64,000 nt of DNA from Nitrososphaeraceae archaeon (lineage in GTDB: Archaea > Thermoproteota > Nitrososphaeria > Nitrososphaerales > Nitrososphaeraceae). The stretch spans positions 160,001 to 224,000 of the forward strand of contig DATGZA010000014.1 in NCBI GenBank assembly GCA_035297365.1, given 5' to 3'. Every line of letters begins with the position of its first letter. Position 1 is the stretch's first letter. Shown here one piece after another: positions 18,772 through 46,780 of this stretch. The position numbers were made by a program, and so were the translations under genes. The notes beneath the pieces are model-generated. The model had not been told where the DNA came from and ran no database searches. It saw only the letters and a list, made by a program, of their open reading frames with translations.

Positions 18772-19779
18772 TTAAAACAGTTTATGCTTTGATAATTTCT
18801 TTGCTTTTATAAAATCTACAAAATAATATAGATATACTCTCTCATTAATTTTTAATATCCACGGAATAAAAGATTCCTTTTTCTGAGTGGATTCATTTAT
18901 TTCAAATCCATTTTCTTCTATTAATTCTCTGAATGATCTTCCATCATATTTTTTTTCAATTTCTTTGTCTCTGTTATAATCATATGGATCTGTAAAAATG
19001 ACATCACTATGGGGTTTTAATAATTTATGAACTGATAATAATAATTCCTTTGGGCTTACCAATTCTATTAAATTCATTGCCAATATGAGGTCAAATTTCA
19101 TATTATGAAAAGGGAGAGAACTTACATCAGAGACACAAAATTCAGTATTACCTTGTATATCTTCCTGCATCAATTTACGAGCTTCTTTTATAAACGAAAA
19201 CGAAAGATCTACTCCTATGACAAATGAATATTTTTTTGCTAACTTGAGTGTAGTTTTTCCCATCGCACATCCAAGATCTAGAGCTATTCCATCAAGTTTT
19301 GGATTTATACTACTAATTACACGATCGTATAGCTCATTTGGATTTATGTTCCATCTTAACGATTTAATTAATCTATCCTCGTCATGTTTTTCTAGTTCTA
19401 GCCACTTATATGGTGAGTACCATATTCCACCATCTTCATATATGTTACTTCCAATTGGACTAAATAAAGATTCGCCAGCGTTTCTCAAAAAATCCTTCAT
19501 TTCGTTTGTTTGACATTCTAATAACCATTTCCCATACATTTCAGTACGATTTTGAATATAATTTGAAAAATTCTTTAGAATTATTGCAACCCCTTCTATT
19601 ATGGGGTATTTGGAATTACAATCTGGACATATTAAAAAACCTTCAATACAGTCTTTTCCCTCCTTATCTATTAGATTTTCTATCTGCAATCTGATTTGTT
19701 TATCTAAATGATTTAGACATATTAGGTGATTTGCGAAAAGTCTTTTCAATCTTCGGTCTAAGTAGTAATTATTTGGCAA
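18772..19779 (-). CDS. Class I SAM methyltransferase with Trm112-like N-terminal module
   Basis: CPDCNSKYPIIEGV, LDLGCAMG, GVDLS and LPF...FDL motifs. Confidence 0.85.
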   Translation of the reverse strand: MPNNYYLDRRLKRLFANHLICLNHLDKQIRLQIENLIDKEGKDCIEGFLICPDCNSKYPIIEGVAIILKNFSNYIQNRTEMYGKWLLECQTNEMKDFLRNAGESLFSPIGSNIYEDGGIWYSPYKWLELEKHDEDRLIKSLRWNINPNELYDRVISSINPKLDGIALDLGCAMGKTTLKLAKKYSFVIGVDLSFSFIKEARKLMQEDIQGNTEFCVSDVSSLPFHNMKFDLILAMNLIELVSPKELLLSVHKLLKPHSDVIFTDPYDYNRDKEIEKKYDGRSFRELIEENGFEINESTQKKESFIPWILKINERVYLYYFVDFIKAKKLSKHKLF

Positions 19780-29999: not shown

Positions 30000-30067
30000 G
30001 CATGTAAATACTTTTTTTGCTTGAATAACGATTATTAGATCGTTATTATTTATTTAATTGCTGTAAT

Positions 30068-31144
30068 ATGTTAAAAGTAGCGTTAATAGGTTCTACCGGT
30101 GCAGTTGGACAAGAATTTGTAGTAGCACTTGCAAACCATCCTTGGTTTGAATTACAGGATATAGCCTCATCTGAAAGATCAGCAGGAAAAAAATATATCG
30201 ATGCCATTAGAGACCAAAACACAGGTATACTAAAATGGCATAACAAAGAACAAGTTCCAGATTATATTAAAGAGAAAGTTGTAAGTAAGGTTGATGACAT
30301 AGATCCTAAAAATTATGATCTTGTTTTTACTGCGTTAGAATCATCTGACGCACAAATAATTGAGCCAAAAATGGCTGAAATAACTCCGGTTATAAGTACA
30401 GCTGCTGCTTTCAGATATCAAGACGATGTTCCAATATTGATTCCAGGGATTAATGATGAACATGTAGAATTATTGAATATTCAAAAGAAAAACAGACAAT
30501 GGAAAGGGTTTGTGTGTCCGCTACCTAATTGTACGACCACCGGTTTGGCAATTTCTCTGAAACCTATATTAGACAATTTTGGCATCGAAAGTATTTTTAT
30601 GACTTCAATGCAAGCTCTTTCTGGAGCTGGAAGGTCTCCTGGAGTTGCTGCTTTAGATATAATAGACAATGTCATACCATTTATTCCAAAAGAAGAAGAA
30701 AAGGTGCAAGTAGAAACCAAAAAGATTCTTGGATCCCTTACAGATAGTTCTATATCTCCTTCAACAGTTAAGGTTAGTTGTACTTGTACTAGAGTACCTG
30801 TTTTAGATGGCCATACAGAAGCAGTATTTGTGGAAACAAAAACTCCTGTTGATCCAGAACAAGTAAAACAAGCAATGATCAATTTTTCAAATTCTGTCAA
30901 ACTCAGCGGATTACCGTCATCACCAAAGCAATACATAATAGTTCATGATGACCCTACTAGACCTCAACCCAGAATCGATAGGGAAATCAATGATGGAATG
31001 ACTACATTTGTTGGAAGATTACGAAAGGATACTGTATTTGACAATGGAGTTAAGTATGTCCTTTTATCTCACAATGAAAAGATGGGTTCAGCAAAAGGTG
31101 CAATACTATTAGCTGAATTGCTAAAATCTAAGAATATGATCTAG
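30068..31144 (+). CDS. asd: Aspartate-semialdehyde dehydrogenase
   Basis: GSTGAVGQ, PNCTT, QALSGAG and RVPVLDGH motifs. Confidence 0.96.
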   Translation: MLKVALIGSTGAVGQEFVVALANHPWFELQDIASSERSAGKKYIDAIRDQNTGILKWHNKEQVPDYIKEKVVSKVDDIDPKNYDLVFTALESSDAQIIEPKMAEITPVISTAAAFRYQDDVPILIPGINDEHVELLNIQKKNRQWKGFVCPLPNCTTTGLAISLKPILDNFGIESIFMTSMQALSGAGRSPGVAALDIIDNVIPFIPKEEEKVQVETKKILGSLTDSSISPSTVKVSCTCTRVPVLDGHTEAVFVETKTPVDPEQVKQAMINFSNSVKLSGLPSSPKQYIIVHDDPTRPQPRIDREINDGMTTFVGRLRKDTVFDNGVKYVLLSHNEKMGSAKGAILLAELLKSKNMI

Positions 31145-31228
31145 AATGGTGGACATTTCTTTAATTTTAAGATATAAATATCAAAACATAGAATCAGTTA
31201 TGACATAACACGAGTTGAGAGTTAAACT

Positions 31229-32116
31229 GTGATTCGACAAGTAACATTAGGAAAAAAAGTAAAAAATTATTATGAATTAACAAAACCAAAAATATGGTAT
31301 TTGTTGGTTTTTACTGCTTTCGGATCCGCTCTTACTGCTTCTTTCCTATTTGATATCCCGATTAGTGTTGTGACGTGGATTCTGTTATTAGGTGGAGTGG
31401 CAGCAGGTTCTGCTGCAGCAGATACTCTAACTGGTTATAACGATAGGGATATTGATGCAATAATGGAAAGAACAAAAGACAGACCTATTCCATCAGGAAG
31501 AATTTCCCCCAAGAATGCTTTAATATTTGGTTTAATTTTAATGTCAATCTCTTTGGTATTTTCTTGGTTCATAAATATCTGGGCATTTATTCTGATGATA
31601 TTCGGTCTTTTTGATAACATAATAATTTACAGTAAATGGTTAAAAAGACGGAGTCAGTCAAATATTATTCTAGGTGGATTTTCAGGAGCGGCCCCCGCTC
31701 TAATAGGATATCTTGCTGTAACTACACAGAGTATTGAGATAGGTCTGGTAATGGCAGCTCTGGTATTTTTGTGGATACCAACGCATATTTGGAGTCTTGC
31801 TTTGCATGTGAAAAAAGATTATCAAAAGGCAAAGGTTCCAATGTTACCGGTAGTATCAGATGAGAAAACATCAGTCAGGATTATTGCCGCAACTACTGTA
31901 ATGATGATATTTTTTAGTATTCTGCCGTTTTTCTTTAATCAATTTGGTTTAATATATTTGATCACCACAAGTGTATTTGGAGCAGTAATGATGGCACTCT
32001 GTTTGTGGCTTTTGATTAAACCTACAGAACGTGCGTCGTGGACAGTTTTTAAATTTTCGAGTCCATATCTGACAGCCATATTTATCGCATTTATTGTTGA
32101 TTCATTCTTTCATTAA
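31229..32116 (+). CDS. cyoE: Protoheme IX farnesyltransferase
   Basis: LTKP, DRDIDAIMERTKDRPIPSG, W.PTH.W and DY.KA.VPM motifs. Confidence 0.95.
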   Translation: MIRQVTLGKKVKNYYELTKPKIWYLLVFTAFGSALTASFLFDIPISVVTWILLLGGVAAGSAAADTLTGYNDRDIDAIMERTKDRPIPSGRISPKNALIFGLILMSISLVFSWFINIWAFILMIFGLFDNIIIYSKWLKRRSQSNIILGGFSGAAPALIGYLAVTTQSIEIGLVMAALVFLWIPTHIWSLALHVKKDYQKAKVPMLPVVSDEKTSVRIIAATTVMMIFFSILPFFFNQFGLIYLITTSVFGAVMMALCLWLLIKPTERASWTVFKFSSPYLTAIFIAFIVDSFFH

Positions 32117-32202
32117 ATACATCTACAAAGAACTATTTCATTTTATTTTCAGGAGATTTCTGTATTAAAATTTATTAAACAATGTAGTTTTAATGTTATT
32201 GA

Positions 32203-32676
32203 ATGAGTCTTGATCATGAGGAAGATTCAAATGAGCATGTAAAATCGTGGATGGTTGAATGGGGTAAAATAAATGAAGAATTTGAAGATTATTCAAAGGC
32301 ACTTGAACTTTTTAACTCAAAATCCTCTGAGGACGTAATTCTATACGAAGTTCAAAGAACTTTGTCTGACGGTTCTATTGTCAAAAAAGTACCCATTCTT
32401 AATACCAAAAAGTCTCGTAAAAGAATGGAGGAGTTGGATAAAAAAAGACAAAAAGAAATCCAAAATCTTAAAAAAGAGGAACAGATTAAAAAGCAAAAAG
32501 ATGCCCCACAAAAAAATAGAATTCAAGACATAAAATACAGAATAATCCTTTTGATAGTTATTGTTATTGCATTTTTTATCTTACTTTATATTCTTAGTCA
32601 ATTAGTTGCATCCTCCGATACTCTTCATTCTCACGTAATAGGATATGAAATCAAAAGAAATATCTTTGAATATTGA
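32203..32676 (+). CDS. Hypothetical membrane-anchored protein
   Basis: Charged N-terminal region followed by one transmembrane helix near the C-terminus. Confidence 0.7.
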   Translation: MSLDHEEDSNEHVKSWMVEWGKINEEFEDYSKALELFNSKSSEDVILYEVQRTLSDGSIVKKVPILNTKKSRKRMEELDKKRQKEIQNLKKEEQIKKQKDAPQKNRIQDIKYRIILLIVIVIAFFILLYILSQLVASSDTLHSHVIGYEIKRNIFEY

Positions 32677-32724
32677 TAATGGGTGAATTATTACAAAATT
32701 ATTCTGTATTCTTCTCTTTGTCTT

Positions 32725-33519
32725 TCATTTTGTAGATATATTAAATATTTCATCAAGTGTGATCGAGTACGGTTTTTTACCGCTTACTTTGAACCTAGTT
32801 GAGTTTCCCTTGAAATCAGTCTCTTGAATAAATCCTAATTTCCTAAAAATAGATAAAGCTATTTTTCCCCTTTGTCTATTATTACCGCAAGCAATTCTAT
32901 CTTTATCTTGAATATTTTGAAGAATAAACATTCCACCTTTATTTTCATTCGATAGTGAAATAACCGCCCTCCATAGTCGAGAAATATAAGAATTAGGATC
33001 GTGTAGTGATCCCATGTAAATAATTTTTGAACCACCAAGAGATTTTGTAATTAACTGAGCAGCAAAATTCATCCTGTCTGTTTCTTTGAAATAGATTCTA
33101 TACACGCTTTGTTTTTTGAATTGCCTATTTTCTTCATTGTCAAACCAATATGCATATCCAGACGGTTCTGACAAATATGGTTGAACGTATTTTTTATTAT
33201 GTTCTAAATTAATATAATTAACGTTGTTGTGGTCATAATTGATTTTTTCATCTCGAGTTATTTTCTTTTTATCATCGACGTTAATAATTTTCTGTGCATC
33301 ACCTAACCTTTCGAAATTAACTATGTATTTTCTCTTCTTCCTAGATTCGATCAACATAATAATTCCCTCGTCTATCAAATCTCTCAATGCCCTATCTAGG
33401 TTGATATCGTAATGCTTCCCGATTTCTCTCAAAATTTGGTCATGGTACACGGCATTATGTACTCCCTCTCCAATTAATTGATAAAGGAACCACTTCTTCC
33501 AGCCGTCCACATTCAACAT
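32725..33519 (-). CDS. Hypothetical protein with probable N-terminal wHTH
   Basis: Clean 264-aa ORF; LDRALRDLIDEGII...RKYIVN resembles a wHTH helix and wing. Confidence 0.7.
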   Translation of the reverse strand: MLNVDGWKKWFLYQLIGEGVHNAVYHDQILREIGKHYDINLDRALRDLIDEGIIMLIESRKKRKYIVNFERLGDAQKIINVDDKKKITRDEKINYDHNNVNYINLEHNKKYVQPYLSEPSGYAYWFDNEENRQFKKQSVYRIYFKETDRMNFAAQLITKSLGGSKIIYMGSLHDPNSYISRLWRAVISLSNENKGGMFILQNIQDKDRIACGNNRQRGKIALSIFRKLGFIQETDFKGNSTRFKVSGKKPYSITLDEIFNISTK

Positions 33520-33969
33520 TATATAAAAGCTATTTTTTTCGAATATATAAGCATAAACACGGATTATTTAAAAATATTTCAAGATTATGAAATTTATATA
33601 CGATGTGTATATTTTATTCGTAAGTTGAACCAATCGCACTCTTATAAACGAAAACGACCCATAGAGAATCTATTTAAAAACGATATCGCTCGGGTATTAG
33701 ATTTGTTTATTTTTAACTCAGAGTTTTCATATTCGACAAAAGAACTAAGTGATTTAACCGAAATCCCATATCAAAAAATCCAAAGGATTTTGATAACATT
33801 GGTGAATAAGAAAATAATTTTAGCTAAAAAATCAGACAACATTAAGAGCTTTTCCATAAACAATAATTCTGAACTTTCAAAAACTCTAATTAGGTTTGTT
33901 CATCAATCAGTTAACATTGAAATTGAACAATTTATTAAAAATTCGCCTTCATTGATAATAAAAAGATAA
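33478..33969 (+). CDS. wHTH transcriptional regulator (true start probably downstream of 33520)
   Basis: ARVLD.F.....YSTKELSDLTEI...IQRIL..LV...I pattern. Confidence 0.7.
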   Translation: MIKEPLLPAVHIQHYIKAIFFEYISINTDYLKIFQDYEIYIRCVYFIRKLNQSHSYKRKRPIENLFKNDIARVLDLFIFNSEFSYSTKELSDLTEIPYQKIQRILITLVNKKIILAKKSDNIKSFSINNNSELSKTLIRFVHQSVNIEIEQFIKNSPSLIIKR

Positions 33970-34365
33970 TGAACTCTTTCTGAATTGTTACCCGAAAGAT
34001 GAATTGATAAAGTTTTGCAAATATTCTTTGCGAAAACCAACAACAGATTAGGTACGATTGATGAGGGGATAAAATAATCAAGTCGTATCTCTTTGTCAGA
34101 ATTTTATAAGAAAATTTTCTTTAATGCCTTTTTTGTAAAATCTCATACAATAATTCCACTAAAAAGATGAGGTATAACGTATGAAATTTAGTAAGATTAA
34201 TTTTATAAGAATTTTGACATGACATTATTATTATTTTATGATTACGTTTACTAAACATAATTGATATCTGGATTATTTTAGCGATCTCGCATAGTTTACG
34301 AATCTCAAATTTATATATTGATGATTTTTAAATTGATTTAATTATGAGGATTTTCCATTAAAGAT

Positions 34366-34542
34366 ATGCCCCTCATCACCGTATCTATGTATCCAGGAAG
34401 ATCGGAAGATCAAAAAAAAGAATTTGCAAAAGAGGTTACGGATATGGCTGTAAAAATTCTCAAAACAAAAGCAGAACATGTTATTGTGGTTTTTGATGAG
34501 AATCCAAAAGAAAATTGGTATTTGTCAGGAAACAACCTCTGA
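34366..34542 (+). CDS. 4-oxalocrotonate tautomerase family protein
   Basis: MPLITVSMYPGRSEDQKKEFAKEVT...HVIVVFDENPKENWY; catalytic Pro1. 58 aa, missed by the ORF track. Confidence 0.92.
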   Translation: MPLITVSMYPGRSEDQKKEFAKEVTDMAVKILKTKAEHVIVVFDENPKENWYLSGNNL

Positions 34543-34619
34543 TATTAAATATTGGATAAAAAATAAAAATATTTTTTCTAATATTTTTTGCTACTTAAGT
34601 CTTTATTTGATTTATCTCA

Positions 34620-35591
34620 TTATCGCTGTGTTTCGTGTATTTTTTCGATATTTTCTAATCCTGGTAAAGCCTTTATTTCTTTACATCTTTTTCTCAATGA
34701 AACTGTAGAAATATCAGCTACTTGACATATCTCAACTTGTCTAATGAATTCGTCACATATTTGAGATGCCAAATATATTACTGCACCTGCAATCGCTCTT
34801 GGGTTTTTTCCTATTGATATCCCCCTTTGTTCTACATGACCGAAGATTTGTAATGCTTCTCTTTTGGTTTTCTCACTAAGTTTTAGTCTGTTAGATATTA
34901 TTGTAACATAATCTGGTCCTTTAGTTGCAGGAATGTTAAGATCTAATTCATTTAAAATCAATTTATAATGGGACATCAATTCCTTGCTGGTTATGTTACA
35001 AATTTCAGATACATCGAGAATAGTTTTTGGTGTTGAAGCCTCTCGACACGCTGCATACAATGAAGCTCCAACCAATCCTATTGTCGATCTACCCTTTGCC
35101 AATTTTTTTACTGCTGCTTTTCTATAGATGTATGCAGCACTTTCAATAACTGCTTGACTAAGACATAATTTATCACCAAAGTTATTCAGATATTTCAGGG
35201 CTTTTTCTAGATTTCTTGATACAGAATCATTTAATTGAGATCTGCTGTTCCATGTACGGAGTCTCTGAATCTCCATTCTTTGTTTTGGTTGTAATACTTT
35301 GCCCCTTGCGTCAGTGTCACCCATTCCTATCAAAGTTGATAATCCTTTATGATGAACTGCTAATGATTCTGGCATTCCTGTTCTGAACCTGTCATTAAAA
35401 TCTGATTGCATAATATAGCCCTGAATAGTTTCATTGTTCAGAGAATCATTACTTAAAACATAACCACAAGATGAACAAACAAATTCGTTTGCAGAATTAT
35501 CAAAAATAATGGCATCTTTTTGGCAATTTTCACAATATGCCGGATTATTTGTATTTGGCTTTGTATATTCTTCTTGCTTCCTATATTCCAC
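34620..35591 (-). CDS. tfb: Transcription initiation factor IIB paralogue
   Basis: Zn ribbon CENC...CSSCG, two cyclin folds with KGRS and GKNPRAIAGA, C-terminal HTH. Confidence 0.93.
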   Translation of the reverse strand: MEYRKQEEYTKPNTNNPAYCENCQKDAIIFDNSANEFVCSSCGYVLSNDSLNNETIQGYIMQSDFNDRFRTGMPESLAVHHKGLSTLIGMGDTDARGKVLQPKQRMEIQRLRTWNSRSQLNDSVSRNLEKALKYLNNFGDKLCLSQAVIESAAYIYRKAAVKKLAKGRSTIGLVGASLYAACREASTPKTILDVSEICNITSKELMSHYKLILNELDLNIPATKGPDYVTIISNRLKLSEKTKREALQIFGHVEQRGISIGKNPRAIAGAVIYLASQICDEFIRQVEICQVADISTVSLRKRCKEIKALPGLENIEKIHETQR

Positions 35592-35912
35592 TAAGTTTTC
35601 ATAGTATGCAATTATTTTATTTATACGTTTTCTAGAAATTCGATAAATAGGGAAAATTACTAGCCATATTAAGAAATCTCTCGATAATATAGATTTGGGT
35701 AATAATCTCTAATGAATATATATTATATTCTAAAGAAATCTAACTTTTATTAATAATAATGTATGTGTTTTGTTTTATTTATGAATATTGCTAATTTTTG
35801 TTATGCATTTTTTTTATATAACAATGATCAATTTTCTTCCCAGTTTCCCTCGTATTCCAACACAACGTTAATCAAACCCTGTATGCATGAATCATTTTGA
35901 TAAGACGTTTTT

Positions 35913-35986
35913 GCCTTGATAGCTCAGCCTGGTAGAGCGTTTCCTTGGTAAGGAAAAGGTCGCGGGATCGAATCCCGCTCAAGGCT
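35913..35986 (+). tRNA. tRNA-Thr(GGT)
   Basis: Acceptor GCCTTGA/TCAAGGC, anticodon arm TTTCC-TTGGTAA-GGAAA, T arm GCGGG-ATCGAAT-CCCGC. Confidence 0.95.
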
Positions 35987-36076
35987 TTTCATTTTCGTCA
36001 AACTACGATGAATTTCAGAAGAATGGTGTGAAAAATATAATGATTTCAGATAACTTAAGAAATCCTCATAATTCAA

Positions 36077-36138
36077 CCTTACCAAAAACAGTAAGAGCCT
36101 TACCAAATATAGTAAGATTTCAGAACCAAGGAAACGCT
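36077..36138. repeat. Two 21-bp tandem imperfect palindromes plus an inverted 14-bp tRNA fragment
   Basis: CCTTACCAAAAACAGTAAGAG and CCTTACCAAATATAGTAAGAT; ACCAAGGAAACGCT (36125-36138) is the reverse complement of tRNA 35936-35949. Confidence 0.85.
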
Positions 36139-38659
36139 ATATACGGTTATCTAGAATCGATAAATAATAAATAGTTGAATTAATGATATAGATCTGACTA
36201 TTATATTTACCTATGATTTCAGCACCAGTTCCGATTATAATGTTATTTGAAATAACTTTATTAGAAGTACCATCTATTATAGTAATTGTATTTCCTATAT
36301 TTACATATAATAAATTATTCATAGTATCATAATACAAATTATGTACAGGTTCACCTATGGGTAAACCTCCTCCTACTTCAATTGTTTTTACAATGGAATT
36401 GTCTGTGGAATTAATTACATAAATGATATTATTAAGAAAGCTACTGACATATACAAGATTGTTATATGAATTAATAGCTAACAAATCTATATAATTTTCC
36501 ACTGGGATAGTGAATATAATAGTGTTATCTGTAGAATTTACAACATAAATAATTTTGGTATGGAAAGGAGTAACATATAGAAGATTATTATTCGGATTAA
36601 GCGCTAATTCGGTTGGCTTGTCACCTACATTAATTGTATCAATAATAGAATTATCAGTAGAATTTACAACTGATATTGTCTTACTATCTGTGTTAGCAAC
36701 ATATAGAAGATTGTTGTTCGGATTAAGCGCTAAGTCGCTTGGCTTGTCACCCGCATTAATTGTATCAATAATAGAAATGTCAGTGGAATTGACTATAGAA
36801 ATAGTGTTATCTTCTTTACTAACAATATATAAGATATTGTTGTTATTATTAAATAATAGTTTATTAGGATTATTGAGTTTAATTTTTTCTAATGCTGAGC
36901 CATCCGTCGCGTTTCTAATAGAGACAGTGTCTGCTATATCATGAGAAGTAAGTGTATAAACATAATTATTTAGAGGGTTAACTATAATATCTATTACGTT
37001 TGTATAGGTTATCCAACTTTTCAAAATAGAATTATCAGTTGTATTTATTATAGTTACAGTGTTGTTACCAGAGTTAGCAACATATAGTAGATTGTTGTTT
37101 GGGTTAATGTCTAACTCTATTGGAGATTTACCTACTGTGATTGTGTCTACCACTGAATTTGTTGTAGAATTTATTACTGATACAGTGTCATTTTCAGAGT
37201 TAACAACGTATAGGTGATTGTTGTTCCTATTGACAGTTAGATCTGAAACCTTATTTGTTTTGATTGTATCTATAACGGTATTGTCTGTAGAGTTCAATAC
37301 AGTTACAGTATTGTTACCAGAATTAGCAACATAAAGTAGATTGTTATTTGGGTTAATGGCTAATTCTTTTGGAGAATTACCTACTGTGATTGTGTCTATA
37401 ATGGAAAAATCTGTTGAGTTCAATACAGTTACAGTGTTATTTTTAAAGTTAGAGGTATATATTATGTCACTATTATTGTTTATTTCAATATCCGTAATAG
37501 GTATATTGAAAATAGGTTCTTCATCTAACACAAGAGCATTTATAATATCGCCTATGGGATTATGTGAATAAATATCATACTCGAAAGATATTGTTCTACT
37601 CCAATCAACTGTATACATTAAATCTGTAATATTGTTAAATACTAGATCTCGAATCCTACTATCGAGTTTTATATAATGTATGTTGTTATCAACAGGATTA
37701 ATTATACTAATGGTAAAAGGTAAATCAGCTAAATAAATTCTGTCATTAAATACTTCAATAGCAGAAGTTTCACCTTTCAACAAAATATCAAAGGTTTTAT
37801 TCGGATTTGTTAAATCAACAAGAGAAAGAAAACTGCCTCCTCCATCCTCGCTTAAGACATACAATATATTGTTTGTAGTATCAATCGCTAATTCCATAGG
37901 TTCAAAGTGTAGCTTGAGTGTATCTACAATTGTATTATTTGTAGAGTTGACGACAGAAATTGTTTGGTTATAAAAACTAGATACATAGAGAAGGTTATTT
38001 GAATTAATAGATAAATCAGTTATTCCCACGTCAACTGGTATAGTGTCTATAACAGAGTTTGTGGTAGAATTCACGACAGAGATATTATTTCCCTCAAAAG
38101 TAGCAACATAGAGTAGATTGTTGTTTGGGTTAATAGCTAATTCTGTTGGAGACTCAGCTATTGTGATTGTTTTTATAATAGAGTTATTAGTCGAGTCTAT
38201 GATAGAAATCGTGTTGTTACCAGAGTTAGCAACATAGAGTAAATTGTTGTTTGGGTTAATAGCTAATTCTGTTGGAGAATTACCTACTGTGATTGTGTCT
38301 ATAACAGAGTTTGTTGTAGTATTAATAACAGAAGTAGTCTTATCATCAAAATTAGCAACATATAGTAGATTGTTATTTGGGTTAATAGCTAATTCTGTTG
38401 GAGATTTACCTACTCTAATTGTATCTATAACAGAGTTCGTTGTAGAGTTGATGACTGAAACAATACCTTCTTCTTCGAAGGGACCTGGTACTGTAGAACT
38501 CGAATAAATATAGCCATTATTGCCATGTAGAATAGAATGAATTTCTACTGAATTATCAATCGTGATAGTATTTTCTAACAGTGCTGATTCCGATTCGGGT
38601 ACTAAGATACTAATAAATAAAATAAAAAAACTTAAATAAAAAAAATACCTGACCTTCAA
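36137..38659 (-). CDS. Secreted YVTN/YncE-type multi-beta-propeller protein
   Basis: Signal peptide and many ~42-aa repeats of the form ITVGxSPxELAINPNNNLLYVAN; repeats also visible at DNA level. Confidence 0.92.
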   Translation of the reverse strand: MKVRYFFYLSFFILFISILVPESESALLENTITIDNSVEIHSILHGNNGYIYSSSTVPGPFEEEGIVSVINSTTNSVIDTIRVGKSPTELAINPNNNLLYVANFDDKTTSVINTTTNSVIDTITVGNSPTELAINPNNNLLYVANSGNNTISIIDSTNNSIIKTITIAESPTELAINPNNNLLYVATFEGNNISVVNSTTNSVIDTIPVDVGITDLSINSNNLLYVSSFYNQTISVVNSTNNTIVDTLKLHFEPMELAIDTTNNILYVLSEDGGGSFLSLVDLTNPNKTFDILLKGETSAIEVFNDRIYLADLPFTISIINPVDNNIHYIKLDSRIRDLVFNNITDLMYTVDWSRTISFEYDIYSHNPIGDIINALVLDEEPIFNIPITDIEINNNSDIIYTSNFKNNTVTVLNSTDFSIIDTITVGNSPKELAINPNNNLLYVANSGNNTVTVLNSTDNTVIDTIKTNKVSDLTVNRNNNHLYVVNSENDTVSVINSTTNSVVDTITVGKSPIELDINPNNNLLYVANSGNNTVTIINTTDNSILKSWITYTNVIDIIVNPLNNYVYTLTSHDIADTVSIRNATDGSALEKIKLNNPNKLLFNNNNNILYIVSKEDNTISIVNSTDISIIDTINAGDKPSDLALNPNNNLLYVANTDSKTISVVNSTDNSIIDTINVGDKPTELALNPNNNLLYVTPFHTKIIYVVNSTDNTIIFTIPVENYIDLLAINSYNNLVYVSSFLNNIIYVINSTDNSIVKTIEVGGGLPIGEPVHNLYYDTMNNLLYVNIGNTITIIDGTSNKVISNNIIIGTGAEIIGKYNSQIYIINSTIYYLSILDNRI

Positions 38660-38855
38660 TAATTTTAAATAATCTAAGTTATTTAAAAAGAATTTGATTA
38701 TATTTGTTATTTTGGTGTATTTTGAGCATTTATTTGTCGAAAATTTGAATTATTTAGAATTACCTTAATTTTTTAGAATTAAAGTCTTTCACAGTCTTTT
38801 GAAAAGATAGGCTATAGTAGGATCTTTTATATTAACATAAATAACAGTAAAAATA

Positions 38856-39115
38856 ATGAATAAGAGACTTGTATTACTTAACAAGTCTGAACTGAATTAC
38901 ATTCTTGAAAATAAGAAATTCTCAAGTCATTTGAATATAAAATAAAAAGCCAGTTAAAAAAGAAGATTTTAATATTCCTAGAAAATGAATTTCCTTTATT
39001 ATTGCAATCGGGTTTTATTGATGTTAATAAACTGCTAGCCTATATAAATAATAATATGTTACTAAATCGTGGTAAGGAAAAGGTCGTGGGATCGAATGCC
39101 GCTCAAGGCTACTAA
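38856..39115 (+). pseudogene. Small att-associated ORF (possible integrase N-fragment), frameshifted, ending in the tRNA copy
   Basis: MNKRLVLLNKSELNYILENKKFS/SFEYKIKSQLKKKILIFLENEFPLLLQSGFID...RGKEKVVGSNAAQGY; 1-nt frameshift near 38925. Confidence 0.7.
39070..39110 (+). repeat. att-like copy of the tRNA-Thr 3' half
   Basis: 39/41 identical to tRNA 35946-35986. Confidence 0.93.
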
Positions 39116-39719
39116 TAACACATTTAAGCCTATAACAATAGTCCATATTCAAGAATTATTTGATTTTAACGAAATCCATTTACAAGTTCTTAGCAATATA
39201 AAGTCATTATTTTACATGTCCACAAATAGACTCAATATAGTTGGAGAGCGTGGTATAACAAGCGCGTTAGATATAGAATTTGCTAGAGTCAACGGGGTCA
39301 TTTGCATCAATTTTCTGAAGAGGTTAAGCATTATCATTTTTTAGGCACCGAAAAAGTTTTCAATCAAAATTATTCTGTTAATAATTTCAATCAAGTTTTA
39401 TCTCATTACCTTTGCTTTTTGATTAATTTAAACATATATGTCGAAGTAATGATAGAAGATATTGCCAAAGAGATCAATCCAAAAATAGTAGTTACCATTA
39501 GAGCAATATTGTTATTTAATGTTAATGAAATTATAACTACGAAAGTATAATTGTTACTAGAACAGTATAGAATTCAAAATTAAAATCTATTCTCTTTCTA
39601 CTATAAAGTTGTAACAACAATACAAAAGGTGATAAATATATATGCTTAGCAAAGAACTTGCGATAAAACCCGAGGTTATTCAAATTTAAGTCGTATAGAT
39701 ATGGAAATATAACTACAAA

Positions 39720-40051
39720 CTTTCATGATCCTATAGAACTAAATCTGCCAGAAGGTTACCGGGACCAAATTCGTTTGGCTGTAGCATCCGTAGTAATACC
39801 TGCTCTCATAGGATGCTAATACCTAGCATGTTTGGTTTCATAAACGGAAGAAGGCGAAGATGGTCTATGAGAGAAAATATAAAAAAATACTAAAAATACA
39901 AAACACACAATATGATTATGAAAATTTTAGAAGAGATCTTTCAGTAATTCAAAAAGATGTAATTACAAAATTGACCGTGGAAAAAATAAGTGATTCTCAA
40001 TACGAAATATTGAATACTAAGATAGACAATTTACCTAATGAGAAAGATTAG
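39720..40051 (+). pseudogene. C-terminal remnant of a membrane-anchored surface protein
   Basis: VVIPALIG/LIPSMFGFINGRRR...KISDSQYEILNTKI across frameshifts; resembles C-termini of Nitrososphaera YVTN-type proteins (from recall). Confidence 0.5.
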
Positions 40052-40790
40052 CGATTATTGTTGTACGAAACGCCTTATACAAATATCTTATTTGTGGCGC
40101 AGGATGAGCAACTTTTTTTATATATCTTACTTTCTTGTTATCCCCTATTAACTGAAGTGAATTGTCCATACATTAGAATGATATTAGATATTAATAATAT
40201 TTTCATTCTATATTTCGATTAGAAGAGATATATACTTTGCAATATGGTTTATAATATATTAAACATATCTGCGAATGTTTCACTGTTATTAAACAATCGC
40301 ATCTTATAACTATATTGGTCTAAATTCAGAATCATGTCCTTCTTAGAGAAACATGTTTTTAGAGGTGCAAAATCTTTTTCTATTGTTAAGAGAATAGAGA
40401 AGTATGTTCAAGTTAACTAAATTCAACATGTGTATCATAGGAATGATTGTAGGAGCAACTCTAATTGCAACACTGCCTTTTATTGGACTGACGTGTAGAT
40501 GGTGTTAGAATCATGCTAAGAAAGATGAGTAGGTAACAAATATAATCTACTCAACAAGAGATCGATACGTCTAGCTATATTTCATAGATTATAAGTAATC
40601 TAAGTTGATACATATAGTCAACATGATGAAAAAGTTTTACCTCCCGTACTACCAAATATCATAAATAATACAAATGATATATAATTATATCATCACACGA
40701 AGAAAACGATGTGACGATAATAGGATGGACAGAATCTGAGTTATATCTTTACATCTTATTTGATAATGCCATGAAATATTCCATTCCTAT

Positions 40791-40810
40791 TTTTTTCGGC
40801 GCCGAAAAAA
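40791..40810. promoter_or_regulatory. Perfect 20-bp palindrome overlapping a BRE/TATA-like element
   Basis: TTTTTTCGGCGCCGAAAAAA immediately followed by TATATAA. Confidence 0.55.
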
Positions 40811-40891
40811 TATATAATCAAATAAAGCAGCATTGGATGGTGACAAAGTAAAAAGGTGCAAAAATTTTAAATATTATTATACTAATTCCAG

Positions 40892-41737
40892 ATGATTATG
40901 AAATTTAATTACATTGTTTCAATGTCTATTGCATTGGTAGCGGTCATAGGTTCTGTTACCCAATTTGCCTTAGCGCAGGAAGATTCTTCTGTATCAGACA
41001 TTTATAAAAATAAGATTATGTATTCTGTAAAATTCATTTGTATTCCATCAGTGGGTCCAGATAAAGAAGGCGTCTTTATGCCCCAAAATTACAGTACTGT
41101 AATAAATGTGCATAATCCATCCAGTCATAACCTTACCCTCTTTAAAAAAGCAGTAATAGCACAAAGTGAAGATGAACAGAGAGGACCTATATCCAAATTC
41201 CATAAAGATTTTCTAGCAGTTGATCAAGCACTCTCGATAAACTGTTGGGATATTTTCGATTTATTTAATCATACATCTTCATTTGGAGACGGCTTTGTAG
41301 TTCTTTTATCAAATGAAAAACTAGATGTGTCTTCAGTATATACTACAATGAATTCAATAGATGTAGAATATATTAAACCTACTATAACGAATGCGTCGGG
41401 TAAACTTCCTGATTTGACTATAGAGATACTTGGTTTTGCAAACAATTGTGGACAAAATGGTTGTAGTGTTGACGTAGATATGAAAGTAAATAATTTGTCT
41501 ACTGAAACAGTATCTACTCCTTTTAATATTGAAACAACAACAAGCAACGGTTTTTCTAATATTCAAACAATTCCCTCAATTTCTGGAGGTGGAAGTCAGA
41601 TACTTTTTGCGAAGTTAGGTCCAGGTAGTAATTGCCATAGCCCAGATTGCACCGTTAACGCTTTTGTAGATAGTTCTAATGTAATAATTGAGAGTAACGA
41701 AAATAATAACAAAGATTCAGTGACGTCACCTGGATAA
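40892..41737 (+). CDS. Secreted protein with C-terminal CARDB-like domain
   Basis: Signal peptide; YSVKFIC...INVHNP domain; LPDLTI...VD..N.I.ESNENNN CARDB motif. Confidence 0.85.
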   Translation: MIMKFNYIVSMSIALVAVIGSVTQFALAQEDSSVSDIYKNKIMYSVKFICIPSVGPDKEGVFMPQNYSTVINVHNPSSHNLTLFKKAVIAQSEDEQRGPISKFHKDFLAVDQALSINCWDIFDLFNHTSSFGDGFVVLLSNEKLDVSSVYTTMNSIDVEYIKPTITNASGKLPDLTIEILGFANNCGQNGCSVDVDMKVNNLSTETVSTPFNIETTTSNGFSNIQTIPSISGGGSQILFAKLGPGSNCHSPDCTVNAFVDSSNVIIESNENNNKDSVTSPG

Positions 41738-42167
41738 CAAAATTATTATTTTCTATTTTAATAAGTTCATCAGGCAGTTTTAGAATGCAATTTTCCATAT
41801 GTATTTTAGAACTAAATATAGGTTGAAAAATACAAAGGAACAACAACAAAGTGGGCTCTGTTTTATAGTTGGGGCAGCAATTGCAAGAATAGAGGAGCTA
41901 TTCATAATACTTCGTCTTAGCATTTTCATTTTCTGTTAACGTATTACTAAAACAAGATTGAATCAGTTTTTCTTCTTATTACTGCAAAACCAGCATTTAT
42001 GTCGCAATATACGAGAAGCAGAAAGATTTTGATATTTAAAAGCTGTAGTTTGAATTTATATGTCATTTTATCGAGAGAAATTTTTATAATTGTATCTACT
42101 TATATAAGTCCTGGGAGTATGGAAAACTTATATTGTTGTCGAGATTTGAAAGAGAGATATTAAAAAA

Positions 42168-42430
42168 ATGGGGAAGATTGTAAAGGTTGTAGGTTGGTTT
42201 TTTGGAATTCTCATTTTTCTGTTTGGTCTACTGATATTCGGCAACACCTTGTTGAGTCTAGGAGACGCAGCAACTCCAATCCTGGGTGCTTATTGATAAT
42301 GCTTATAGGAGCTCTAGCATGTTATCGAGCTAGTAGATCTGGCAGAAAGAAGGATGTGACATATCATGGAGTCAATAGATCAAGTGCAACCAACAATTTA
42401 GAAGAGATGCAAGAAGAGAAGATAGAATGA
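42168..42430 (+). pseudogene. Two-TM small membrane protein, frameshifted
   Basis: MGKIVKVVGWFFGILIFLFGLLIFG...PILG / LLIMLIGALACYRASRS; same architecture as 46781. Confidence 0.6.
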
Positions 42431-42672
42431 GAAATTGACCTAGAAAAGGAAAGAAGTAAAATAATGGAGATGCTATGAAGGACTGGAATACCAAGCAAAA
42501 CTAAAAACGTGCTTGATTAGTTCCATAGTGTATTTCTCTGACATATGAAACATGTCATACCATTTATCTTTCAAAGTTTCAAATAGCTAATATTTAAGAC
42601 AATACAGCGTTGGCAAAATTATTGCTGATGGAAAATCTGGATTAATTATATTTATATAAATTTTGGTATTAA

Positions 42673-42823
42673 AGTGAAAAATATCGAGAATTCAGATCGG
42701 TTTTATATTATCATTGAAAAGTTTATTTATTAAAAACAAGTAATAGATCGGGTCTATAATCTCTAATTAATCAATCCAAAGGTTAAGATTCGAGGTGAGC
42801 ATAATGCTCCCGCTTAAGGTTGT
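42673..42823 (+). repeat. ~150-bp promoter plus structured-RNA-like repeat, copy 1
   Basis: Aligns with 45620-45769; ends in TCCCGCTTAAGGT, 11/13 identical to the tRNA 3' end. Confidence 0.85.
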
Positions 42824-43039
42824 AATACCTAGTGAATGATTGTCATTTTGACTATCTATTTTTTGACAATACCATCATCATTTCTATCTTAACTATTTGG
42901 ACATCTATCATAGTTTGCCCCTACGAATCCGTCAATCAATTGAGTTAAGATAGTTTGTAGTTTATTTCAAGAAAAAGAATTGAATTTGAATATAAAATCG
43001 AAGAACAAAAGATGAAGTACGCAGATAAAAAATATTTTA

Positions 43040-43657
43040 TTACATTTTTAGGATATCTTGTTTCATTTTTAAAAATTCTGCTTCATTAATTATCCCTTGT
43101 TCTTTCAATTTAGCCAATTTAAATAATTCATCTGCAATTGATAATTTTTGATCAGAATGAATACCCGTATGAACTTCTGTGGTTTTTTGCTTTTTAATAT
43201 TCTCCATCGATCTTTTAATATATTCGACTATTTTCTCAGCCTTTTCTTTTGAAATAGCATCTATGTCTCCTCTATAGCCAGAAGCCATAATTTTTACTGC
43301 AGATGAGAACATACATTTTTCTAATTCAATAGATGTAATTTTATCATATGTAATAGACTCGAAATCTTCTCTTGCTCCAAAAAATGAAGGATCTCGTATC
43401 AATATCCTCTTATTGGTTACAAAGATAGTATCAGGGGTAGTGTGAGAACCACCTGGTCTTAATTTTGATTGTTTGGCAACGATCTCAACTTTCTCATCTG
43501 AATCTAATCTCTTTGAAATTTTTTTAATTTCTTCTATTTCTTTAATATCAAATTTGTCTTTGTCTGGGATTTGTCATTGATGGATATTTAAGTTAGGGTT
43601 TGATTCAGACTTGGTTTCTTTATCATTATTATCTTTTCTACCAAAATTCAGAGCCAT
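43040..43657 (-). pseudogene. Bacterial PH-domain plus SHOCT protein with in-frame TGA
   Basis: ATG at 43657, TGA at 43574-43576, then AKQSKLRPGG..TPDTIFVTNKRILIRDP and SHOCT motif ELFKLAKLKEQGIINEAEF. Confidence 0.8.
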
Positions 43658-43929
43658 ATGAATACAATATATTAGAAATTATCAAGTTATCAATCATCAA
43701 TTACCATAGAAATTGAGAAATTAAAAGACATGCTAAAAGCATATTGCAAGTGAAAATCTAATTATCTTGATTAGAGAATTATAATAAGATTGTAAAGTAA
43801 TTAATTCATTTTAGCTGATAAAGGCATTAATTTATTATAATATTTTTCGAGTTTTTTTATTGTGTTGATAATATCTATGAATTGGTAAATAATTTACAAA
43901 ATATGCTAAAATAGCTTTGTTAAATAGTT

Positions 43930-44253
43930 TTAGACTTGAATAATTCCAAAATAAAATGAGTTGAAAATATTCAGGTAATCATCCTCATCGTCATCAAATA
44001 GCCATGGCTGACATACGTTTGGATATCTCAATGAATCATCAGGGTCGTCACAGACATCATCTTCAAAATATGTCCTCTCTTTTTCATTCTCAATCTCATA
44101 TCTGTCCTTTTTAACACTCCATTCTCCCCCATAACCTTCGCAATATTATTTAGGTTTGTCTTCTTTACCTGCATATATAATAGATATTAGCGAGGTAAAT
44201 GAAACAATAGTTACCATCAGCACAGGAATCATTATGCGTTTTGTTTCTATCAT
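43930..44253 (-). pseudogene. Small secreted acidic Cys-containing protein with in-frame TAA
   Basis: Signal peptide, TAA at 44146-44148, then YCEGYGGEW...EDDVCDDPDD...YPNVC in frame. Confidence 0.55.
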
Positions 44254-44784
44254 AAAATTGTTATTCAAACATTATAAGATATTGTTAACCTTTTATGGGT
44301 AACCATGGAATTAGTCTTTCAGCTTTAGAAAGATCTTTTAGTTACAGAAATTCTTAAATTAAGAACTAAGACTCATAAGATTTTCATTTATAGATTCGAA
44401 AAGTGAATTCTTTATTTGAAATAATTAATTAACTAAGGTCATCGTATTGAACAGATAAGATTTACATATGCCTTTAAAACTTCTGCTTGAAATGTGACCA
44501 TCTTTATGCAATAGGAATATGCAGCAAATCCTAAATTCAGGGCTTGGATTTCCGTGGTTAGCTCCTTCATTAAATCAGGATTACCATTTTTAATATGAAT
44601 TTTTATAGTGGCTGTAACCAAATAATCAAAATGTTTATTATACTTACGTTCTAAATGTATACAGGATGGCAGCAAAAAAGAAGAGTAAAAGTAAGAGTAC
44701 GAAAAAAAAATAAAGCGTTAGCATCTATTTCTATTTTTTGTCTAACTCTTCTCATTCGTTTATTGACACAGTTGTATATTATTT

Positions 44785-45177
44785 TCAAATTATATTTTCA
44801 TCAACTTCAAAGAATCTTAACTTGCCTGGATAAGGGATTGGATTTTTTAACATCTTTGCATCTCTAATGAAGAAACCATATCTATAGCCTTCAAAATACT
44901 TGGTAATCACAGAAAAGTGTTTGTGTCTGTCCTTTTCAAATTCTTGTTCATTACTGTATTCTTTAACATCATATAGAAAAGCAGAACCTATTATTGCTCC
45001 TATTGTAAAGTTGTTACTATTCATATCTAGTCTTTCACAGGATTCTATATCGATATTTTTTGAGGCATGAATTAGAAATTCTGCTCGGAATGAAGAATTC
45101 CATTTCCTTAGCTCTATTGTCTTTTCACCATGAGCTAAAAGGTCTGCAAAAGGCTGTTTTAATGACAAACATTTCAT
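44785..45177 (-). CDS. ASCH domain protein
   Basis: CLSLKQPFA, GEKTIELR, LIHAS and GAIIG motifs. Confidence 0.92.
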   Translation of the reverse strand: MKCLSLKQPFADLLAHGEKTIELRKWNSSFRAEFLIHASKNIDIESCERLDMNSNNFTIGAIIGSAFLYDVKEYSNEQEFEKDRHKHFSVITKYFEGYRYGFFIRDAKMLKNPIPYPGKLRFFEVDENII

Positions 45178-45619
45178 GAAATGCTGGTGTATTGTTACAA
45201 GGAACTTGTAATTTTATTTTATGTCTTTGTATGTTTTGTCATTTATTTTTGCTAGATTTCAATCTAGCGGATGCGTTTTTGATCTTCGAATATCGGCATT
45301 GGATGCTTTATCATTACGAAAACATGCAAATGCTCTACAATAATAAAAAAAACCACAAGAAGGACATATTGGGTTTACTAATGATGACATATTCAAAATA
45401 GCAATTAAGACATTTCATATTACAAACATAAATTATAATTTTTATATACACCTATGGGAAAATTGATTGAGTAATAACAGATATTTCATTATAAGTAGTA
45501 AACTTGAAGTTTATTTCCTTATTAATGTCTCATAACAATTTATGAATCAATCAAAGAACTCTACTAGTTTCAGAATTCTGAACCTCTGGTTGATGATATT
45601 ATTGTCAATTTTTATAACA

Positions 45620-45769
45620 TGTGAAATATCAAGGAATCAGATTGGGTTTCTTATAATATTATCGAAAACCTTTATTTCTTTCAAAACAAATAATAGATAG
45701 AGCACATAATCTCTAATTAATGAATCCGAAAATTAGGATTCGAAGTGAGCATATTTCGCTCAAGGCTCA
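45620..45769 (+). repeat. ~150-bp promoter plus structured-RNA-like repeat, copy 2
   Basis: GAAAACCTTTATTT, then a 70-nt cloverleaf-like unit containing CGCTCAAGGCT, identical to the tRNA 3' end. Confidence 0.85.
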
Positions 45770-45884
45770 TCCTTTAAGCATAAATTTTGATATTTTTGAA
45801 AAATCGGTTGCGTATTTATGACTATCGACATAACTTTTTATCAGAATTCGTATATATCATCTTGTTATATTATTAAGTTGGATT

Positions 45885-46244
45885 TTGAAAGTCATCAGGA
45901 AACAACAAGGAAAATCGGTTAGTACCAAGGTAAAGATTTCGGATAAAAGTATCAATACGAATAAAGATAACAGATCAACTAAAGTAACGATAAGAAAGAA
46001 TAGAATTTTATCAAATCAGAAAATGGTAGGAAAAGATATGGTAAAGAGACAGTTTAAAGGAAGTAGTAGGAAATTATGTATGGGGATAACTATGGATAAA
46101 GAATTCCTTGAAGGGTATTTAGACAAGCATGCAGCTGAACTGAAAATGTCAAGGAGCTGGCTTGCATATTCAATACTTAGAATGTACTATGGTTTACCAG
46201 TAGAACAAAATATAAAGAAAGCATTGTGGTCTTCTAAAAAATAA
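45885..46244 (+). CDS. Basic protein with ribbon-helix-helix-like C-terminus
   Basis: MGITMDKEFLEGYLDKHAAELKMSRSWL CopG-like pattern; start uncertain. Confidence 0.6.
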   Translation: MKVIRKQQGKSVSTKVKISDKSINTNKDNRSTKVTIRKNRILSNQKMVGKDMVKRQFKGSSRKLCMGITMDKEFLEGYLDKHAAELKMSRSWLAYSILRMYYGLPVEQNIKKALWSSKK

Positions 46245-46780
46245 TTTTCCTACAACAACAAATTCACTGTAAGATTTATTGAAAAAATTCAGAAAAGAAG
46301 ATTAAAAAGAATATTATAAAAAATATTATGAATAACAGATAAAATAACCGGGAGAAAAAACGATTCAACATTAGTAATTCAAATATTAATTCAGTATTTA
46401 ATTATATTTTTACATTTAGTATGGGTCTTCAATTTTATAAGTCGTGCATCATTTCCATTCATAAATGTAAATAATATCTCTTTTTACCAAAACATTATAC
46501 TTTTATTATCGTATCAATATCGGTATTACATCGCACGCGTCAATAATGTTTAGGGTTTTATTTATTGCACAATACATTAATTATCAAATCAATTTTAGTT
46601 ATATAAATGAGAAATTAAAAGAAAGGTAATGAATTTTAGTAAAAAGAGGTGTATTACTTGGTGTTGATTTTTATGAAATAGATGTGGTATGTAAGAATCA
46701 TGAATCTTGGAAAGAAAAGATGAAGTGATAATGTACAGCTATCAAAAAATATGAAATCAATGCAATTGGTGGGTGAATAA

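Follow-up and report, generated by a model that had tools for sequence, protein, structure and literature searches.

Type I or SSV-type integrases, such as those of SSV1, pTN3 and pT26-2, are described as 'suicidal' enzymes whose attachment site (att) lies inside the integrase gene, and their integration leaves two pseudogenes, int(N) and int(C) (PMC8371274, PMC7253208). PF16795 is given as the domain of this SSV/pTN3/pT26-2 integrase superfamily (PMC8371274). For integrated elements of Thaumarchaeota, att sequences of 8-26 bp with a median of 17, a location in tRNA genes in 57% of cases and tandem arrays have been reported, together with one split SSV1-like integrase in Nitrososphaera, that of NitEve-E3 (Krupovic et al. 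2019, PMC6563490). In this study we have analysed a stretch of 64,000 nucleotides from a Nitrososphaeraceae archaeon (GenBank assembly GCA_035297365.1, contig DATGZA010000014.1, positions 160,001 to 224,000; hereafter the window), in which two related repeats, copy 1 and copy 2, lie downstream of a tRNA-Thr(GGT) gene and end in sequence of its 3' end. The two repeats are most likely the scars of mobile elements that inserted successively behind the tRNA-Thr gene, and not small-RNA genes. More specifically, we consider it probable that they are right-hand attachment junctions (attR) of elements whose integrase gene is split on integration and which are stacked at tRNA-Thr(GGT).

Read in this way, the locus shares with the SSV-type systems an att within the integrase frame and a target in the 3' part of a tRNA gene, and it would also share a tRNA fused to int(C) and a promoter with int(N) at the far end; here as there, stubs would decay as pseudogenes and arrays would build up at one tRNA. 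It differs from them in several respects. The integrase family is XerC/D-like (PF00589 with SAM-like domains and Zn ribbons), and PF16795 (Phage_integr_3) has no match in it at E<=1; the hosts are soil Nitrososphaeraceae according to database labels, not hyperthermophiles; and the short int(N) has only about 13 codons and the core 11-15 nt, as against the 40-50 bp reported for suicidal integrases (PMC8371274). The Thaumarchaeota elements described in PMC6563490 are similar in their short att, their preference for tRNA genes, their tandem insertion, the presence of small cryptic elements with varied cargo and one split integrase. The term 'tRNA-Thr' does not occur in the main text of that paper, nor did we find, in the passages searched, any mention of a conserved promoter with a 13-codon stub common to Thr(GGT), Thr(CGT) and Gly(TCC) targets. 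In elements of the lambda/P4/pNOB8 type, a direct repeat of the tRNA 3' end likewise marks the far end of an island and the tRNA is a hotspot, but the gene stays whole there with attP outside it, whereas the frames in the window would place att inside the gene. An original prediction made on this DNA had offered, as one of two explanations, a structured recombination site analogous to the attC of integrons. It was right in kind, the repeat probably being a tyrosine-recombinase attachment junction, but not in the likeness to attC. Both are repeated, partly palindromic recombination sites between blocks of unrelated genes; unlike attC, however, the unit studied here has a tRNA end and the start of an open reading frame (ORF), its copies join whole elements and not cassettes, and it needs no single-strand folding. 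No IntI-type integrase or attI was seen, though no search was aimed at either; the tRNA end and the ORF start suffice to account for the anatomy of the unit. The core finding, element ends made of an integrase stub and a tRNA end, is an instance of a described phenomenon; of modest side interest is that a family outside SSV, in mesophilic soil archaea, has an integrase gene laid out for splitting, and that its int(N) is unusually short.

Repeats, tRNA ends and the integrase frame

Searched with copy 2 as query, the genome to which the window belongs (G000, 110 contigs) gives an alignment of 42679-42803 with 45620-45775 at 78% identity (query 5-134, E 3.1e-22), and in a MAFFT alignment the two stretches have a mean column identity of 82% over 235 columns, which bears out the earlier claim that 42673-42823 and 45620-45769 are homologous. 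The same search gives a third, partial copy on contig C6 (77%, E 1e-7); of the 29 matches listed, the remaining 26 are short, with E > 0.1. Rereading of the sequence also confirms the letters that had been given for copy 2, the hairpin GAATCC-N8-GGATTC within it and its ending in tRNA-Thr 3' sequence, which is CGCTCAAGGCT, 11 nt common with the 3' end of tRNA-Thr(GGT). A search for further copies, as the original prediction had proposed, gathered 12 distinct units from 4 of 25 genomes of the genus and from metagenome contigs. BLAST of 61 related genomes found true copies only in G014 and G017, two in each; weak matches in G018 and G029 fail to align with the unit family and were dropped from all counts. 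A strict pattern, consisting of the 16-mer AAAACAAATAATAGAT, AATCC and GATTCG, occurs at six sites in 3 of 238 genomes of the family (reversed control 0) and has no match in viral contigs, among which a single-protein query found no relatives of the integrase either. The strict pattern matches 7 loci in metagenomes, 5 of them real: L048, L052 and L053, which do not differ in sequence, and the relatives L049 and L050 of the window. The other two, L047 and L051, are chance matches and were dropped from all counts. When one mismatch was allowed in the 25 genus genomes, 4 genomes had units and the variants G017:C4, G000:C11 and G024:C286 were added. Such a sporadic spread is as for mobile DNA.

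Each of the 12 units ends in a tRNA 3' end, and the tRNA is Thr(GGT) in 6, Thr(CGT) in 4 and Gly(TCC) in 2. The Thr(GGT)-type end is TCCCGCTCAAGGCT (14 nt that relatives of the repeat share with the tRNA) or near to it; the Thr(CGT)-type (type-2) end is TCCCACCAGAGGCT, cut to ...CCAGAG in two of the four; and the Gly(TCC)-type (type-3) end is ATCCCGGCCCGGGCGC or near to it in both units. The full tRNA-Thr(CGT) gene of the window's genome (C12:33265-33339) ends in exactly the type-2 sequence. Among type-2 units, those of G000:C6 and a metagenome contig are alike only from the 16-mer onward, and those of G014:C36 and G017:C2 only over the unit of about 94 nt, at 94% identity. A plain local duplication is ruled out by these copies on other contigs and genomes bearing other tRNA ends. 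What turned up is essentially a duplicated element end or gene fragment, the outcome that had been named beforehand as the one opposed to a small RNA or an attC-like site.

An integrase gene is found behind the same kinds of tRNA. On G000:C12, a tyrosine-recombinase gene (PF00589, E 3.6e-14) stands directly behind tRNA-Thr(CGT), and its open frame begins inside the tRNA, the end of which is read as ..N-P-T-R-G-S... The ATG frame of the type-2 unit reads P-T-R-G-S, the same frame as that of this integrase. For Thr(GGT), P-A-Q-G is read in the unit frame and in the integrase frames of G003:C44 and G010:C271; for Gly(TCC), N-P-G-P-G is read in the unit frame and in the integrase frames of G002:C97 and G014:C88. 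The frame of the unit ATG is that of int(C) for all three of the three tRNA targets. The family has 356 homologues at E<=1e-10, of which 120 are listed; among these, many start at a conserved 'MRDLY' and many others run upstream through the tRNA T-loop 'GSNP' and the motif E-S-S-V/L-R/Q-I/V-P. The integrase scores 53.3 and 51.7 bits with PF00589, for which the cut-off is 27.1, its Pfam matches at E<=1 are PF00589, SAM-like domains and Zn ribbons only, and the nearest solved chains are those of XerD (1a0p) and XerA (4a8e).

Two minor observations concern the DNA around these integrase genes. Behind the tRNA end, on the integrase side, the conserved E-S-S-V/L-R/Q-I/V-P is encoded by DNA containing ..TCGGTTCGAATCCC.., which looks like a second T-arm and is approximately the reverse complement of GGATTCGA in the unit (P0001-P0120; L061-L072). 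The two sequences may be an inverted pair of integrase-binding sites around the core. In addition, two integrases of the family (L063 = G012:C18; L071 = G010:C222) are preceded by ..ACGCCG(G/A)GAGTGGGA(C/T)T(T/G)GAA.. and by no recognisable tRNA, and this shared sequence may be another kind of target gene.

The most direct view of att inside the gene comes from a relative. On G010:C271 there is an unbroken ORF of 557 aa, in which the first ~87 codons are followed, inside the frame, by 43 nt that copy the 3' half of tRNA-Thr(GGT). The window has the homologous N-terminal part at 38856-39069, with one frameshift, and then a tRNA-Thr half at 39070-39110. Because the ORF of the relative spans the tRNA half and the window holds the matching stub, this integrase family carries att inside its own gene. 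The core lies within the integrase ORF in this long form, and in the short form it would do so by the match of frames at the three targets. The two parts of the gene are found on separate contigs: tRNA with int(C) on G000:C12, G003:C44, G002:C97, G014:C88 and soil contigs of the sets X5 and X6, and int(N) with the core in the 12 units and at 38856-39110.

The X5 and X6 soil contigs come closest to showing the two ends of one element. In them, the left flank of the window and tRNA-Thr continue into GTAATACCTCGCTTCGAGTC, the coding sequence of the conserved S-L-R-V with which int(C) begins, and another contig of these sets carries a unit (45683-45752 plus nine other letters, with the frame kept) joined to the window from 39101 onward, the junction point being where the window has its long stub. 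These ends, which are on separate contigs, presumably belong to one element. The same data bear on copy 1. The sequence GTAATACCT follows the core of copy 1 and also the tRNA-Thr of G017, in which the integrase is gone thereafter; in X5/X6 it continues into the integrase motif. Since the same GTAATACCT is found behind both the copy 1 core and the tRNA-Thr of G017, copy 1 fits a right end that directly adjoins what a deletion has left of the following element's left end, and GTAATACCT would be the first bases of the int(C) side of that following element, the rest having been deleted.

As to its own anatomy, the unit has a TATA-like box centred ~26-29 nt upstream of an ATG, then ~13 conserved codons (MNP..RIR.EH..) and then the tRNA 3' end. 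Boxes of the BRE/TATA type (factor B recognition element and TATA box) had been predicted, and the A/T-rich boxes so named do exist, but the better-conserved promoter-like element is another one, the 16-mer AAAACAAATAATAGAT at 45683-45698. This 16-mer is unchanged in 8 of the 12 units and has one change in 2, and the other 2 (G000:C11, G024:C286) have a different TATA-like box. In three unrelated upstream sequences, an A-rich stretch is followed by an A/T-rich, TATA-like box, whose position relative to the ATG is about -23 to -32 in all three. Such spacing is expected in archaeal promoters for a transcript that starts at or near the ATG. We infer that the 16-mer is a putative promoter and that the short form is translated from the unit ATG.

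The codons of the 12 units, read by eye, show what is kept. The ATG is present in 10 units, with copy 1 (ATC) and L049 (ACG) as exceptions, Asn2 and Ile7 are invariant, and from the ATG to the core all 12 are free of in-frame stops. The codon for Arg6 is AGG in 8 units, CGG in 3 and AAG in 1 (the decayed copy 1). That for Arg8 is CGA in 9 units, CGC in 2 and AGA in the remaining one, where the arginine is kept but the last pair of the hairpin (GGATTC arm) is lost. Because Arg-Ile-Arg is maintained through synonymous codons, one of which breaks the hairpin, the pattern of change fits protein-coding constraint. Some units are damaged: before the core, 4 nt have been deleted from copy 2 and 1 nt from G000:C6, and copy 1 has a stop inside the core. 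This is the decay expected of orphan stubs.

We propose the following model. Each repeat would be an attR that consists of an archaeal-type promoter with the geometry of a leaderless mRNA, an int(N) of ~13 codons and an att core that copies the final 11-15 nt of the tRNA and is read in the frame of the integrase. In the free circle, the promoter, int(N), the core and the rest of the integrase gene would be contiguous, and the gene would be split when the core recombines with the 3' end of the tRNA, to which it is identical. After insertion, the left end would be a tRNA with a restored 3' end fused to int(C), and the right end would be the promoter and the int(N) stub beside the old flank downstream of the tRNA. 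Repeated insertion at the same tRNA would push older elements to the right, and 35987-45767 would then be a decayed tandem array with three right ends, 38856-39110, copy 1 at 42733-42830 (core end 42821) and copy 2 at 45683-45767. The order of insertions at tRNA-Thr is likewise an inference.

Comparison with relatives shows where homology breaks. G014:C89 matches the window at 95% from 30001 to 35966 and the match ends inside tRNA-Thr, and G017:C10 matches it at 88% from 45675, the start region of the 16-mer, to 56000; the right flank after the core of copy 2 is syntenic with G014 as well. The interval from tRNA-Thr(GGT) to the unit measures 3.7 kb in G014, 9.7 kb in the window and 14 kb in G017, and the genes in it are unrelated: a copper chaperone and two DUF1326 genes in G014; beta-propeller, CARDB, bPH_3/SHOCT (with an in-frame stop) and ASCH genes in the window; and bPH_3/SHOCT, TPR, binding-protein and IS4/5 transposase genes in G017. 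Such synteny is consistent with a variable island, that is, an insertion hotspot at the tRNA.

The island of G014 has some peculiarities. Its sole full-length candidate for tRNA-Thr(GGT) (L037 15311-15400; G014:C89:172310-172400) has an insert of ~21-28 nt in the T-loop, and ARAGORN misses the gene. By eye, the insert can form a 3-bp helix with a 3-nt bulge on either side, which resembles a bulge-helix-bulge splice motif, and it could be a T-loop intron or damage from recombination at att; elsewhere in G014 the copies of tRNA-Thr are 3' halves only. About 45 nt of the right flank that follows the unit in G014:C89 recur, ~85% alike, directly behind tRNA-Thr (L037 15395-15440 vs 19212-19260), and the 3.7-kb island is flanked by imperfect direct repeats of ~58 nt that extend past the tRNA end.

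Alternative readings of the unit

Several observations weigh against a split integrase gene. At 'MRDLY', which lies 50-70 residues after the tRNA, a Met is retained in nearly all of the 120 homologues listed and Met or Leu in essentially all of them, and many gene calls start there; the integrase may begin downstream of att. An intact short-form gene, the unit together with int(C), was found on no viral contig, and the 5 true metagenome contigs all have the attR form. None of the 120 listed homologues starts with MNPN, no contig was seen to bear a unit and its cognate int(C), and no integrase stands behind tRNA-Thr(GGT) in the window, G014 or G017. The palindrome GAATCC-N8-GGATTC, which is unaltered in 9 of the 12 units, also fits a constraint from DNA binding or from RNA, and the codon tally is one made by eye on short and related sequences. 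Thirteen codons are very short beside the N-part of ~87 codons in the same family. Moreover, homology between genomes begins exactly at the 16-mer, which alone could mean that the unit is the chromosomal side.

Candidate partners for the units were examined as well. Integrases near the units in G014 and G017 were rejected, being distant (20-26% identity) and lying beside tRNA-Val and tRNA-Ser. No k-mer overlap was found that would join the end of G000:C12 to another contig, such as C6 with its type-2 unit.

Of the other explanations, the one that survives best, though we think it unlikely, is that the unit is the P-arm of the element, that is, sites for integrase or accessory proteins together with the core, and that the integrase is unsplit and starts at the MRDLY Met, as in the pNOB8/lambda type, the ATG frame being incidental. 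It would account for the Met or Leu and the gene calls at MRDLY and for the intact short-form ORF being seen neither in viral and metagenome contigs nor among the 120 listed homologues. It is favoured also by the palindrome and the 16-mer, which resemble protein-binding sites, and by the T-arm-like motif that closely follows the tRNA in the int(C) copies and has GGATTCGA of the unit as its near reverse complement. However, it leaves as coincidence that the frames agree at three of three tRNA targets, and it does not sit well with synonymous Arg codons that keep R-I-R while the DNA motif breaks. In many homologues, in addition, the frame stays open over the 40-70 codons that separate the tRNA from MRDLY, in DNA rich in A and T, and the long form is one ORF across att.

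It is far less probable that the orphan units have been co-opted by the host as promoters or 5' leaders of a downstream gene, for example the ORF 45885-46244. Such a role would suit three observations: in G000, G014 and G017, synteny and conservation extend over the unit and its right flank though the integrase is gone; the 16-mer is intact in all three; and a contig from an RNA library covers 45909-46070. However, the flanks downstream of type-2 and type-3 units are unrelated, and flank identity between G000 and G017 is 88%, at which survival of the 16-mer by descent alone is not unlikely; nor can contigs show transcript starts. The same limit holds for the other Logan contigs available: those of X20, from a run labelled as RNA, cover the tRNA and some island genes over 35500-46500, and those of X19, labelled as RNA and probably DNA, cover 45571-45721, but contigs cannot show starts, strand or absence.

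The other explanation offered by the original prediction was a tRNA-mimic small RNA with a cloverleaf fold, and this did not hold up. ARAGORN finds 2 tRNAs in the window, neither of them at the repeats, and Rfam at the gathering score gives the same 2 only; at E<=10 on 42600-45900, Rfam gives 6 sub-threshold matches and no tRNA. By minimum free energy, copy 2 has a fold z-score of -3.45, and copy 1 and four relatives have -1.3 to -1.95; the GAATCC-N8-GGATTC hairpin is the sole element common to all folds. On an alignment of 9 distinct copies, RNAalifold keeps this central hairpin alone, with 7 pairs and 0 compensatory changes. When the predicted cloverleaf was scored on the same 9 copies, its helices 1, 2 and 4 were paired in only 69-78% of cells. 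Both sides changed in 3 of its 19 pairs, a count reached by 91 of 500 shuffles; the share of paired cells (79.5%) and the covariation score were each reached by just 1 of 500, a result to be read with the caveat that related sequences can beat shuffles without any structure. Readings as C/D-box or H/ACA small RNA were dropped by eye, the boxes being lacking and the sub-threshold Rfam matches being chance ones only. We regard as most improbable of all, therefore, a small structured RNA gene with its own promoter that mimics part of a tRNA and ends in the 3' strand of the acceptor and T-stem of tRNA-Thr: the z-score of copy 2, the promoter-like box, a hairpin ~40 nt from the 3' end near the position of the tRNA anticodon arm (counted by eye) and the ability of some 5' bases in several copies to pair with the tRNA-like end speak for it, but the consensus is one invariant hairpin with no compensatory pair, helices 1, 2 and 4 are poorly kept, the z-scores of the five other copies are small, ARAGORN and Rfam are silent, the 3' end varies with the neighbouring tRNA target and not with a partner strand, the conservation is codon-like, and the unit is present in just 4 of 25 genus genomes.

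Significance of the units

If each repeat is an attR junction that retains the 5' stub of an integrase gene, the units should be annotated as element boundaries and not as small-RNA genes, and the 9.8 kb from tRNA-Thr to 45769 as a decayed stack of integrated elements. The units would be useful for tracing past insertions at tRNA-Thr and tRNA-Gly in soil archaea that oxidise ammonia, and they hint that gene-splitting integrases are common outside hyperthermophiles and the SSV family, which bears on the question of how self-destroying integrases persist. In this respect we speculate, quite tentatively, that a large XerC/D-like family of soil Nitrososphaeraceae, without PF16795, has evolved the 'suicidal' layout independently of the SSV superfamily, and that one branch has shrunk int(N) to a leaderless stub of 13 codons. 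Given so short a stub and the conserved Met inside int(C), the split enzyme could then stay active once inserted and the suicide be reversible, and the stubs might serve as portable modules of promoter and att that switch between tRNA-Thr(GGT), tRNA-Thr(CGT) and tRNA-Gly(TCC).

Features of the island

The features of the island are collected in the table.

Table. Features between the tRNA-Thr(GGT) gene and the right end of copy 2, in window coordinates; assignments to element ends follow the proposed model.
Feature	Position	Strand	Basis
tRNA-Thr(GGT), proposed integration target (attB/attL side), left edge of island	35913..35986	+	ARAGORN; Rfam 69.7 bits
Beta-propeller repeat protein, 840 aa (Lactonase, NHL, YNCE-like matches), filling the leftmost putative element remnant	36137-38659	-	Pfam
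Putative long-form int(N) remnant, N-terminal ~70 codons, one frameshift	38856..39069	+	translation matches N-terminus of the 557-aa gene of G010:C271
tRNA-Thr(GGT) 3'-half copy, anticodon loop to 3' end; putative att core of leftmost element	39070..39110	+	93% over 41 nt to tRNA-Thr of G017
Copy 1, promoter-like 16-mer AAAACAAGTAATAGAT, one change from consensus	42733..42748	+	
Copy 1, putative int(N) mini-ORF, decayed: ATC for ATG, palindrome without both end pairs	42770..42807	+	
Copy 1, putative att core TCCCGCTTAAGGTT (2 changes vs tRNA end), then GTAATACCT at 42822-30	42808..42830	+	
bPH_3 + SHOCT gene, one in-frame stop, cargo between the repeats	43040..43658	-	Pfam, translation
ASCH-domain gene, cargo between the repeats	44785..45177	-	Pfam E 2.6e-6
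Small Cys-rich ORF, 45 codons, conserved right end of element	45259..45396	-	blastn; no Pfam match
Inverted remnant resembling tRNA-Thr(CGT) 3' end and downstream flank	45567..45592	-	blastn of 45507-45590 to G017:C2 and G000:C60, opposite orientation
Copy 2, 16-mer AAAACAAATAATAGAT, putative BRE/TATA box, centre ~28 nt upstream of ATG	45683..45698	+	
Copy 2, putative int(N) mini-ORF (MNPKIRIRSEH..), out of frame via 4-nt deletion before core	45720..45756	+	
Palindrome GAATCC-N8-GGATTC inside copy 2 mini-ORF	45722-45741	+	
Copy 2, putative att core CGCTCAAGGCT = last 11 nt of tRNA-Thr(GGT); conserved chromosomal flank next	45757..45767	+	

Some of the genes in the island have counterparts elsewhere. 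The G017 homologue of the bPH_3/SHOCT gene lies directly behind tRNA-Thr, and a repeat gene similar to the beta-propeller gene of the window is found at the end of G000:C60. By blastn, the DNA of the Cys-rich ORF is 84-89% conserved beside the unit in G014:C89, G017:C2 and the metagenome contig L049; the ORF may encode a small Zn-ribbon protein of the right end of the element.

Two further observations concern tRNA-Thr(CGT). At G000:C60:49834 (L056 ~9835), a 3' end of this tRNA with a flank of the G017:C2 type is preceded by unrelated sequence and not by a unit, and it is probably the right end of a different type of element at the same target. The inverted remnant at 45567-45592 suggests a past exchange between elements at the two tRNA-Thr genes.

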